47,623 nucleotides of DNA. Origin: a virus (Duplodnaviria > Heunggongvirae > Uroviricota > Caudoviricetes). The stretch spans positions 1 through 47,623 of the IMG/VR virus record IMGVR_UViG_2541047816_000005; one strand, given 5' to 3'. Positions 1-19,253 of this stretch are shown in pieces (the stretch's first letter is position 1; every line of letters begins with the position of its first letter). A program made the translations under genes and the position numbers. The notes beneath the pieces are model-generated. The model did no database searches, was not told the origin of the DNA, and saw only the letters and a list, made by a program, of their open reading frames with translations.

Positions 1-221
1 ACCCGCAAACCACACTTCCCTTTAAAACGCGTAACATACATTGCTTGCGTTTAACTTTCTTTGAACTCTTGCAGAAAAATGAGAATTCGTGAGTACGATC
101 ACTCAAAATCGCCTGGCAAAAATAAAATCACCCTATAGATGCACAAAAAACGGGCAAAACTACCTGGTTCGCAAAACTGCGTCTAAAGTTAAACCGGGAC
201 CTCGCGAGCAAGGGTGAGACG

Positions 222-290
222 ATGGCGCTTTACACAATTGGTGAAGTGGCGTTGCTTTGTGATATTAACCCTGTCACGTTACGCGCGTGA
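222..290 (+). pseudogene. mlrA: 5' fragment of MerR-family regulator (MlrA/YehV-like), 22 codons then TGA; likely prophage junction
   Basis: ATG at 222 preceded by AGGGTGAGA; translation MALYTIGEVALLCDINPVTLRA then stop at 288-290; matches the N-terminal HTH of MlrA as recalled, and similarity ends abruptly. Confidence 0.45.
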
Positions 291-483
291 CGCAACATTT
301 TTAAAAATCGACGAAGATCGTCCAGGAGCGCCATTTTTCAAGGGTTGGACAGATGATTCGTTTTCGATGTCGACGAACTTCGACGGATTTCGCCGATAAA
401 AAGTGTCCCATACATGCCCCATAGATGCCCCATAGGCAATATTACCAATTGACACTGGTTATCCACACAGCCAAAAATAACAC

Positions 484-499
484 CTGTACATAACTACAG
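484..499 (+). promoter_or_regulatory. putative LexA (SOS) box CTGT-N8-ACAG upstream of dinI-like gene
   Basis: cCTGTacataactACAGtt read directly; AGGAGGG RBS at 504-510 and ATG at 515. Confidence 0.55.
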
Positions 500-514
500 T
501 TACAGGAGGGGGTT

Positions 515-763
515 ATGCGTGTTGAGATCTGTATCGCTAAAGAAAAAATCAGCAAAATGCCGAAAGGTTCTGTTCCTGCTCTGCAGCAAGAAATGCTGCG
601 CCGCATAGGTAAGCGATATGACGATGCAGATGTGATCGTTAAATCTGCCAGCAATGATGGACTCACCATTTTAAGAGCCGTCGATAAAGAATCAGCACTG
701 GAGTTCGTACAGGAAACACTACAGGAAGTCTGGCAAACCGCGGACGACTGGTTTATGCAATAA
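515..763 (+). CDS. DinI-family DNA-damage-inducible protein
   Basis: 82 aa; [10 protein letters not shown]...[12 protein letters not shown] resembles DinI along its length (recalled); strong RBS; LexA box upstream. Confidence 0.75.
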
Positions 764-16669: not shown

Positions 16670-16996
16670 TCATAACACCGTCGGACAACGCAAATCGTAA
16701 ATCAGCACGGAAACAGAAAACGGCAGCTCCCCCTGAAGCAGTTCTTCCCGCTCCGCAAGATCCGGATTCCGGTACAGCATCCCGGTCAGTCGCATGGCAG
16801 CCCCCTTCATCCGGGTTAATGCCTCGCCCGGGATCAGTTCACCGTCCTCACGGATCACTTTATCCCGGCTGCCCTGAATGTAGGCCAGCAGCACGGCGGT
16901 AGCCTGACGAACCTTGTCCATCAGCATGTCATCATCCGCGTCATGGTCGACACGCAGATGTGCCTTGATCTCTTCCAGTGTCAGTAATGCCGTCAT
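16670..16996 (-). CDS. gp6-like head-tail connector protein
   Basis: 108 aa; MTALLTLEEIKAHLRVDHDADDDML is the typical N-terminal signature of this family. Confidence 0.55.
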   Translation of the reverse strand: MTALLTLEEIKAHLRVDHDADDDMLMDKVRQATAVLLAYIQGSRDKVIREDGELIPGEALTRMKGAAMRLTGMLYRNPDLAEREELLQGELPFSVSVLIYDLRCPTVL

Positions 16997-17892
16997 TTTC
17001 CGCCTCCTGCATCCCGCCCACGTTTTGCAGCCAGGGTCCAGGCTGATGAATGAGCTTCTCCGGGTTTATCTTCGGTCATACTGTTGCAGTGCCACAGCGA
17101 GCCCCCCCACGTCACCGTATCGCCGGGGTGGTAGGTTTCACCGGCTCTGAACACACCGCGGTAGAGCATCACCGGCAGGGAAAATGTTTTTTCCGTACGC
17201 TGGCCACTGCTCTGCCGGACCACCACAGAGAACAACCGCTCACCCGTCATGCTGACGTCAATATCCGCCACCCCGTCAACCAGGCATTCCCATCCCCGCA
17301 TCCCGTGCGTTTTTTCATACGCCCGCCAGAGTCCGCCCTGGTGTGTGGCATACGTGCCCCGGGGAAAGGATTTTTGCTCATCAATCGCCGGGAATATTTC
17401 CAGTGCCGTGGCATCACGCCCGTCCTGTGGAGCCGGCAGGGCACTCACCGCATCCAGAACCGCCTTCTGCAGAACTTCCGGATCGTAGTCACGACCGTCG
17501 CGCGGAACGGGGATATGACTCACTGCGTCCTTCACCATCTGCTCGATCATCGGGCGTACATCATCCGCAGTGACACTTTTACCGTCCGCCGGTACCGGTA
17601 TTTTCGCGACCGCATCATTCACCGCCTGCTGCAGCACCTCCGGATCATAATCACGACCATCGCGCGGTACCGGAATGGCCCCCACGGCGTCATTCATCAT
17701 CGCCTGCAGAACAGGGCGCACCTCATCCACCGTCACATGCTTCTGTAACAGAGCAGACAGGGAAGCCAGTTTCTCTTCAAACGCCCCCGACTGTGCGGCC
17801 ATCTTCTCCTCAAATGTGCGCTGTAAATCCGCCAGCACCGTGGCGAATTCTTCACCCAGCGCACGGATAATGGACAGTTCACGCTCTGTCAT
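16993..17892 (-). CDS. head-associated protein with internal tandem repeats (possible decoration protein)
   Basis: 299 aa; repeated IPVPRDGRDYDPEVLQ.AV.DAV units and N-terminal coiled coil; mirrored by DNA repeats near 17460-17690. Confidence 0.5.
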   Translation of the reverse strand: MTERELSIIRALGEEFATVLADLQRTFEEKMAAQSGAFEEKLASLSALLQKHVTVDEVRPVLQAMMNDAVGAIPVPRDGRDYDPEVLQQAVNDAVAKIPVPADGKSVTADDVRPMIEQMVKDAVSHIPVPRDGRDYDPEVLQKAVLDAVSALPAPQDGRDATALEIFPAIDEQKSFPRGTYATHQGGLWRAYEKTHGMRGWECLVDGVADIDVSMTGERLFSVVVRQSSGQRTEKTFSLPVMLYRGVFRAGETYHPGDTVTWGGSLWHCNSMTEDKPGEAHSSAWTLAAKRGRDAGGGK

Positions 17893-19253
17893 TTTCGCAG
17901 TATCCCCCTGAACATCGCCTTCACCGCATCACGCTCTGTTTCGCTTATGGCCTTATTACCGTCAGATGCGCCGTCAGGCAGTTGTGATGAAACTGTTTTC
18001 CCGGTCGACGCGAACGGATCCTCACGGGCATCACGACGGGACAGCGCCTCCAGACTGTAGTTCTGCTGCTGAAGATACAGTGCATCACCGCCGGCCAGAG
18101 GCGGCAGGTTCTCCCGTTTACGGGCCTCATTGGGCGTGAGAAGCGTATTTTTCACCGCATCCCCCAGCGTTTTCATGCGCCGCTCACTGTCCATTCTCAG
18201 CAGCGTGGTGACATCAAATTCTGTACTCTCGTTTTCCCCCGTTTCCAGCGCCTCATCCAGTAACAGTTCAATGGACTCAATCAGCGTCTGCAGGCACTGG
18301 GAATAATACTGCTGCTCCAGCGCCTCCACGTTGTCACTGGAAGGCGGTTGTCCCACGCCAATCTTGTAGGCCGGGACACGGAACACCGAACAGACAATTT
18401 CAGCAGTCATCTTCAGTTGTTCCACCGTCTGCGCATCCACCGGTGAAAACGTCGTGGGGTTGTATTTTGCCCCGTTGCTCAGAATGGCCGTTTTCCCCGC
18501 ATTTTCGCCTGTATACCCGCTGTCCCAGTTGCTCTTCAGTTTTTTCGCATTTTCTTCCGTAATACTGCCGGGGATCTCAATCACCCCGGACGGCCTGCCG
18601 CCATTTCTGAAAAAAGACGTTGAATTTGCCTGAATATGATGCCCCTGCGTGGCCGCCAGCCCGGCAGCATACACCGGCGGCAGCCCCACAAGCGGATGAA
18701 AAAAACAGTTAAACCGGTCGTGGATCACTTCCCTGGCAGGCACCGTCACCGCCTCAGTGATCCCGCAGTTCCGGTCCGGTGTAATGCGATAGAACACCTC
18801 GCCGTCATCCGCCACCAGAGGTTCAACCCGGCTCCAGTCCAGAATACGCAGTTCTTTGATCTGCCCCCGGGAGTTACGGATTTTCAGCACCACCGTATTG
18901 CCGTGACGCAGTTTGGCGTTCAGCCACAGTTCAAAAAACTGGATACGATTCTGCTGTGCATTGGGACGACGACAGAGACGGGCAATATCCCCCTGCCGTT
19001 TTTCACGGCGGATCCCCTGTGTATCGGTCTGCATCAGGCGCAGCCGCATTTTGGCGATATCCTGGGATATCAGCGAAATGCAAGAAAACACCGCGTGAAA
19101 GGACAAAACGGTTTCCGGATCGGCTTTCACACCCTGCTGCCAGGCACCGGCAAAAGGCTCAGCCACCGCCTGAAACAGGCTGGTCCAGCCCACCTCTTTT
19201 ACATCACGTCCTGATTTCTGGTTTTTTCGGGTTCGCCACAAAAGGTTCCACAT
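17889..19253 (-). CDS. portal protein (HK97 family)
   Basis: 454 aa; SFHAVFSCISLISQDIAKM and FFRNGGRPSGVIEIPG...FRVPAYKIGV resemble conserved portal blocks. Confidence 0.75.
   Translation of the reverse strand: MWNLLWRTRKNQKSGRDVKEVGWTSLFQAVAEPFAGAWQQGVKADPETVLSFHAVFSCISLISQDIAKMRLRLMQTDTQGIRREKRQGDIARLCRRPNAQQNRIQFFELWLNAKLRHGNTVVLKIRNSRGQIKELRILDWSRVEPLVADDGEVFYRITPDRNCGITEAVTVPAREVIHDRFNCFFHPLVGLPPVYAAGLAATQGHHIQANSTSFFRNGGRPSGVIEIPGSITEENAKKLKSNWDSGYTGENAGKTAILSNGAKYNPTTFSPVDAQTVEQLKMTAEIVCSVFRVPAYKIGVGQPPSSDNVEALEQQYYSQCLQTLIESIELLLDEALETGENESTEFDVTTLLRMDSERRMKTLGDAVKNTLLTPNEARKRENLPPLAGGDALYLQQQNYSLEALSRRDAREDPFASTGKTVSSQLPDGASDGNKAISETERDAVKAMFRGILRK

Follow-up and report, generated by a model that had tools for sequence, protein, structure and literature searches.

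Host DNA and the left junction in mlrA

The window, that is, the whole stretch of 47,623 nucleotides analysed here (IMG/VR record IMGVR_UViG_2541047816_000005), opens on bacterial DNA and continues as phage DNA from position 290. Two features make up its first 290 bases.

1-221, plus strand: host DNA, the btsS (yehU)-mlrA intergenic region with the ribosome-binding site and upstream region native to mlrA; identical to intact loci
222-290, plus strand: truncated mlrA, codons 1-22 plus a TGA stop (from the translation and a weak Pfam MerR match)

Positions 1-289 correspond to the uninterrupted btsS-mlrA intergenic region and mlrA codons 1-22 of E. coli, and the btsS (yehU) CDS has its boundary, with the btsS start codon, at the base immediately before window position 1. 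The initial annotation had read a short ORF with a good ribosome-binding site and an early stop as the start of an MlrA/YehV-like regulator, preceded by some 220 nt of ordinary upstream DNA. Both readings proved correct: the 221 nt are the btsS (yehU)-mlrA intergenic region, and the ORF at 222-290 (plus strand) translates as MALYTIGEVALLCDINPVTLRA followed by a stop, its 22 residues being residues 1-22 of the 243-aa MlrA. The stop codon is completed by the phage; base 290 (A) is phage DNA and converts GCG TGG (Ala22-Trp23) into GCG TGA. Pfam matches positions 1-17 of the MerR profile weakly to this ORF (E=0.00096, below the curated cut-off).

Insertion into mlrA (yehV) had been proposed, with alignment to an uninterrupted locus as the check. 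We ran this alignment base by base against the intact locus of NZ_CP007275; the two sequences are collinear and perfectly identical through position 289 and show zero similarity from 290, which confirms the proposal. Among the genomes listed, identity between window 1-289 and the intact mlrA locus is 99.3-100%. A 700-base query taken from the window start found a match in all 5,426 complete E. coli genomes, mostly with only 1-289 aligned, under annotated mlrA. The same junction together with the phage arm recurs in 443 complete E. coli genomes, and in lysogens RefSeq labels the stretch equivalent to 222-290 as an incomplete CDS. The left boundary of the prophage in the window is 289/290, and 269-290 is the host-phage junction remote from the integrase and corresponds to lambda attR. 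In the host strain mlrA is disrupted.

The shortness of the ORF is the only point in favour of a chance reading frame, or of an mlrA gene cut without site-specific integration, through an IS element, a point mutation or a faulty assembly. Against such origins, the 289 bases of exact host identity end abruptly where phage records annotate an att site, the integrase present matches this site, and the core is directly repeated at the far end in relatives (see below). A chance ORF is excluded because the same junction and phage arm are found in the 443 genomes; this recurrence, the intact-locus comparison and the far-end core repeat together refute non-integrative truncation as well, and we give these origins practically no credence.

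Occupancy of the site was assessed with a 181-bp query across the intact sequence, which was at least 80% covered in 4,944 of the 5,426 complete E. coli genomes; about 9% lack an uninterrupted mlrA site. The listed partial match to this query breaks exactly at the core end. The xis-int region was found in 506 complete E. coli genomes. Published yehV junction primers A and F match the window exactly at 244-263 and 47152-47171, and the published phage-side primer E has no match in the window within 4 mismatches. The standard A/E junction PCR would therefore miss the left junction of this prophage.

Attachment core, phage arms and the integrase end

The elements of the integration system lie at the two ends of the window.

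269-289, plus strand: 21-bp attachment core CCCTGTCACGTTACGCGCGTG, common to attB, the left junction and the far junction
273-291, plus strand: candidate core-type integrase sites read from the sequence, an inverted repeat GTCACG (273-278) / CGTGAC (286-291) with a putative 7-nt overlap TTACGCG (279-285)
290-514, plus strand: DinI-side phage arm, corresponding to the lambda P arm and without similarity to attB from 290
403-434, plus strand: three tandem RTGYCCCATR repeats at 11-bp spacing, candidate arm-type integrase-binding sites (from motif count and conservation)
484-499, plus strand: LexA (SOS) box CTGTACATAACTACAG, upstream of the dinI-like gene
515-763, plus strand: DinI-like gene, the first prophage gene past the junction (Pfam DinI 6.7e-17; PHROG 189; RefSeq annotation in relatives)
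46049-46303, plus strand: excisionase of the xisR type (Pfam PF06806, 2e-29; annotated xisR in CU37RT-2)
46337-47623, plus strand: tyrosine integrase of 428 aa with an N-terminal arm-binding domain (Pfam), its stop codon ending the window
47589-47609, plus strand: two RTGYCCCATR repeats, both within int at its 3' end; candidate arm-type sites for the arm next to the integrase

The core CCCTGTCACGTTACGCGCGTG is present once in the window and twice in the locus fetched from the lysogen CU37RT-2 (L004, positions 133 and 47861). Window positions 270-289 are the 20-bp misc_recomb feature of VT1-Sakai (AP000400), annotated at both ends as 'attachment site of Enterobacteria phage VT1-Sakai', in a record that describes yehV as divided by the prophage. 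Similarly, the JLK-2012 record carries a 21-bp attR at the position aligned with window 269-289. From this shared sequence, strand exchange must have occurred within 269-289. The junction had initially been placed near 285-300, which is right for the last base shared with attB (289) but not for the crossover, which lies within 269-289 and not in 290-300.

GTCACG and CGTGAC form a perfect inverted repeat around TTACGCG, and the palindromic character of the core also emerged from the scans. (A promoter and terminator scan of positions 1-900 gave consensus-level matches only, and nothing of it was used except the palindromic core.) The arrangement GTCACG-N7-CGTGAC appears to resemble the lambda-type core sites that flank a 7-nt overlap; an alternative palindromic register within the core, centred at 284/285, is possible.

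The DinI-side arm at 290-514 shares 86-91% identity with its counterparts in VT1-Sakai, JLK-2012 and BP-4795. RTGYCCCATR occurs five times in the window, compared with 1.07 expected, and none of 100 shuffles reached five. All five copies are on the plus strand and confined to the two att arms, at distances from the core of 134-165 nt in the DinI-side arm and, with the second core placed as in relatives, about 50-72 nt in the integrase-proximal arm. Conserved copies of the repeats are present in VT1-Sakai, JLK-2012, phi330 and a yecE-integrating phage, and we infer that they are good candidates for arm-type Int sites.

The LexA-box pattern CTGT-N8-ACAG has a single match in the 47.6 kb, at 484-499, and the VT1-Sakai record annotates a putative SOS box at the homologous position. 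The distance from the prophage end to the box is 195 nt. The mlrA promoter of the host is directed into the dinI-like gene, and read-through from the host promoter is conceivable.

At the opposite end, the integrase contains Arm-DNA-bind_2 (PF12167, 3.3e-24) and Phage_integrase (PF00589, 5.4e-18) domains, and its cognate excisionase adjoins it at 46049-46303. Of its 428 residues, 418 are identical to those of the VT1-Sakai integrase (98%), which by sequence places it in the clade using the mlrA/yehV site. The statement in the initial annotation that Stx1-converting prophages use this site is borne out by the att annotation of VT1-Sakai together with this integrase identity.

A matching core and the remainder of mlrA had been expected beyond the integrase. 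BLAST of the 664 nt of the mlrA 3' part against the window gave no match, and no second core copy was found inside the window; both are missing because the window ends on the integrase stop codon. The far junction is known from two fetched lysogens, CU37RT-2 and AR_0013. CU37RT-2 (O16:H6, human stool) aligns with window 137-47623, its overlap with the fetched stretch, at 99.3-99.9% identity, and the left end of AR_0013 is 99.9% identical to the window. Past the integrase stop both carry 37 nt of phage DNA, CCCTGTCACGTTACGCGCGTG, mlrA from codon 23 onward and then yohO and yehW, as in the intact locus; counting the core, mlrA codons 17-243 are present at this end. The expected geometry is thus right, with the core at 269-289 and both missing pieces present in near-identical lysogens, but neither the second core nor the mlrA remainder lies in the window. 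From these near-identical genomes we would expect this prophage copy to be complete and the mlrA 3' part to be present, starting with GGCAGAGGCGTTACGG... at codon 23. Over the stretch compared, the sequence on either side of the insertion agrees exactly with attB, and precise excision would therefore rebuild the intact reading frame.

In lysogens, RefSeq labels the promoter-less mlrA 3' fragment as a normal 228-aa 'HTH-type transcriptional regulator MlrA' (L004 47859-48545; L003 1699-2385), with an ATC codon at the phage arm/core boundary as its annotated start. Gene-name surveys would overlook the disruption, since the fragment carries an ordinary 'mlrA' label. No in-frame ATG, GTG or TTG occurs between the preceding stop codon and the core. 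The idea that the phage rebuilds a functional MlrA 5' end, as the 228-aa CDS might suggest, was rejected on the ATC start, the lack of an in-frame ATG, GTG or TTG, and the loss of MerR HTH profile positions 1-15.

In the free-phage record phi330 (PV189401) int, core and dinI are contiguous, at 88% identity. That record contains the 20-bp core twice in tandem at attP (L006, about 1735-1780), and this 'complete genome' may have been built from prophage ends rather than from packaged DNA. It lends weak support to the reconstructed attP.

Prophage content and the stx slot

The remaining 47.3 kb of the window are one lambdoid prophage. From the junction the gene order runs from the dinI-like gene through tail-fibre, lom-like, J and other tail genes, head genes and terminase (tail to terminase on the minus strand) to lysis genes with a nanS-p-type esterase, two tRNA genes, a porin and the Q antiterminator, and then through a helicase/primase replication module and immunity genes to the excisionase and integrase. 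The structural half is about 93% identical to that of long-tailed Stx1/Stx2 phages and of the non-Stx phage JLK-2012. The early half is a mosaic, covered to at most about 35% by any single deposited phage. The features considered below are as follows.

16993-19253, minus strand: split portal region, two ORFs (299 and 454 aa) with a 4-nt overlap
28642-30603: nanS-p-type esterase
31202-31630, minus strand: 142-aa ORF, lipoprotein-like at the N-terminus (…LTTGC) and ending in a TolA C-terminal domain (Pfam 3.8e-23; PHROG 5772, of unknown function)
31909-32070, minus strand: two tRNA genes, tRNA-Arg(UCG) and a CAT-anticodon tRNA (Met by ARAGORN, Ile by RefSeq)
32840-33982, plus strand: OmpC-like porin gene beside Q

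The porin and tRNA genes are late-region cargo typical of Stx-type phages.

A Stx1-converting prophage of the Sp15 / CP-933V / VT1-Sakai type would share the attachment site and the 98% identical integrase described above, and a structural half about 93% identical to long-tailed Stx1/Stx2 phages fits it too, as does the Stx-typical late layout of Q, a methylase fragment, tRNA genes, a nanS-p-type esterase and lysis genes. The defining feature of such phages is the pair stxA and stxB, which follow Q and the tRNA genes and precede the lysis cassette. We inspected this slot, between the tRNA genes at 31909-32070 and the esterase at 28642-30603, and ran a Pfam search; there are no stx genes in the window. 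The only ORF between the tRNA genes and the esterase, the usual position of stxAB, is the 142-aa TolA-domain ORF. The annotated 99% identical prophage of CU37RT-2 likewise lists no Shiga toxin, and an early half covered to only about 35% by any deposited phage also speaks against this identity. The inspected slot and the annotation of the near-identical prophage refute it for the window, and it is barely credible. The most fitting description of the element is a non-Stx lambdoid prophage whose integration module is of the Sp15/VT1-Sakai type.

The TolA-domain lipoprotein could act as a TolA decoy affecting the entry of colicins or filamentous phages. Searching the literature for TolA-like cargo of lambdoid prophages that lack stx gave nothing relevant.

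The portal region is 324 bp shorter than in the 99% identical CU37RT-2 prophage, whose portal RefSeq calls frameshifted. Because the portal is split into two ORFs and shortened in this way, it is uncertain whether the prophage can form particles; how the junction is read does not depend on this. Two portal ORFs are also annotated in BP-4795 and JLK-2012, and the split may be native.

This bears on whether the insertion is reversible. Were the prophage a fixed defective remnant, the junction would be a permanent mlrA knock-out; the split and shortened portal, in an element whose closest relative has a portal flagged as frameshifted, would fit such a state, as would the rare recovery of cured cells from O157 lysogens (PMC5931665). 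However, the integrase and excisionase are both of full length and fit their Pfam families, the core and arm repeats are conserved, Sp15/VT1-Sakai, which has a 98% identical integrase, is reported to excise (PMC5931665), and the split recurs in BP-4795 and JLK-2012. We consider a permanent knock-out possible but rather unlikely, and favour a reversible insertion.

Predicted MlrA inactivation and related systems

In intact MlrA the MerR_1 HTH spans residues 4-72 (Pfam) and the break comes after residue 22, so that integration splits the MerR-type DNA-binding domain; the 3' fragment keeps only MerR profile positions 16-68. A lysogen would therefore be without functional MlrA.

In the mechanism that we favour, a lambda-type tyrosine integrase inserted the lambdoid prophage into the 5' end of mlrA (yehV), and recombination took place inside the 21 bp that phage attP shares with mlrA codons 16/17-23. 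The left end keeps the mlrA promoter and ribosome-binding site of the host along with codons 1-22, which run into a stop supplied by the phage, and the other 221 mlrA codons would be displaced by about 47 kb to a position just past the integrase gene. With the break inside the helix-turn-helix, the lysogen would lose the function of MlrA, the activator of csgD, and the production of curli and biofilm matrix should be impaired. Int/Xis-mediated excision would restore the wild-type gene exactly. Taken as a whole, from integration at the mlrA 5' end to restoration of the gene by excision, we hold this explanation with very high confidence.

The expected phenotype of the lysogen is drawn by analogy from published Stx1 prophages at the mlrA site. 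MlrA enhances RpoS-dependent expression of csgD. In two STEC strains outside O157, O103 and O113, curli and Congo-red binding returned when mlrA was supplied on a plasmid (PMC3874044), and a prophage in mlrA abolishes curli and biofilm, with excision restoring native mlrA (PMC3874044, PMC5931665). According to PMC5931665, which cites Uhlich et al. 2013 and 2016 and Shaikh & Tarr 2003, native mlrA and strong biofilm formation are regained once the Stx1 prophage has excised, and the distal mlrA fragment is transcribed by run-off from the induced prophage. The experiments on excision and restored function cited in PMC5931665 and PMC7192596 concern the Stx1 prophage of strain PA20 only. Recombinant truncated distal MlrA fragments restored some Congo-red binding, though not biofilm formation (PMC5931665), and for this reason 'null' may be too strong a word for the state of MlrA.

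Among known systems, VT1-Sakai (Sp15) / CP-933V, the Stx1 prophage in yehV of E. coli O157:H7, has the same 20-bp annotated att site, the same type of excisionase and the same orientation relative to mlrA. Its DinI-side arm, with the SOS box, is 86% identical to that of the window prophage and its integrase 98% identical. In contrast to the window prophage it carries stx1, and its early and regulatory half is largely different. The closest complete-genome lysogen of the window prophage is not O157 but the O16:H6 human stool isolate.

Non-Stx phages occupying yehV have been described in O157 and O55:H7 strains (PMC8309913; JLK-2012 record). JLK-2012 (O55:H7 DEC5E) and the occupant of O157 TW14359/TW14313 are, like the window prophage, stx-negative. 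JLK-2012 is 93% identical over 84% of the structural half and has its 21-bp annotated attR aligned, and TW14359 matches window 1-660 at 92.6%. JLK-2012 differs in that the espV effector gene adjoins dinI, whereas the window has no espV there and carries tail-fibre genes at most 1.5 kb from the junction.

Like lambda Int/Xis, the system combines a tyrosine integrase that has a separate arm-binding domain with an adjacent excisionase, candidate arm repeats in each of the two arms and, in the core, an inverted repeat that flanks a candidate overlap of 7 nt. The lambda attB is intergenic, whereas the mlrA target is a coding region that is inactivated. The integrase-proximal arm of the window prophage also departs from lambda in overlapping the int 3' end, with candidate binding sites.

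The yecE-integrating Stx2 phages (e.g. Stx2_EH2201, LC567829) have a DinI-side arm almost identical to that of the window prophage, with all three arm repeats present. Their integrase-coding DNA is related as well, intR lying in a region of about 87% mean nucleotide identity. Their core differs, reading CCCGTCACTTTAACTGCATG (L008 340-360, against window 269-289), with integration retargeted to yecE. Set beside the window prophage, these phages look like a natural example of retargeting through the core with the arms unchanged.

mlrA is counted among the known cases of 'regulated gene integrity' (PMC7192596). As in such 'active lysogeny' (comK, sigK, mutL, mlrA), a conserved domain is disrupted here and precise excision would restore the gene. 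For the window prophage, a role of excision as a physiological switch is hypothetical. One could imagine that this stx-negative prophage of non-O157, human-associated E. coli serves as a reversible MlrA curli/biofilm switch through non-lytic excision and reintegration and that, in addition, its TolA-domain lipoprotein is an unrecognised lysogenic-conversion factor, e.g. a TolA decoy that protects against colicins or filamentous phages. The support for both ideas comes from gene content, and we regard this reading as improbable.

The junction itself is not new; the identification is a correct one of a textbook, well-documented integration site, and publications since 2000-2016 have repeatedly described phages in yehV/mlrA, their effect on csgD and curli, and the restoration that excision brings. 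Its practical value is that the occupant is a non-Stx phage unmatched by one published junction primer and that RefSeq names hide the disruption. For the host strain, the disrupted mlrA predicts reduced curli and biofilm matrix.
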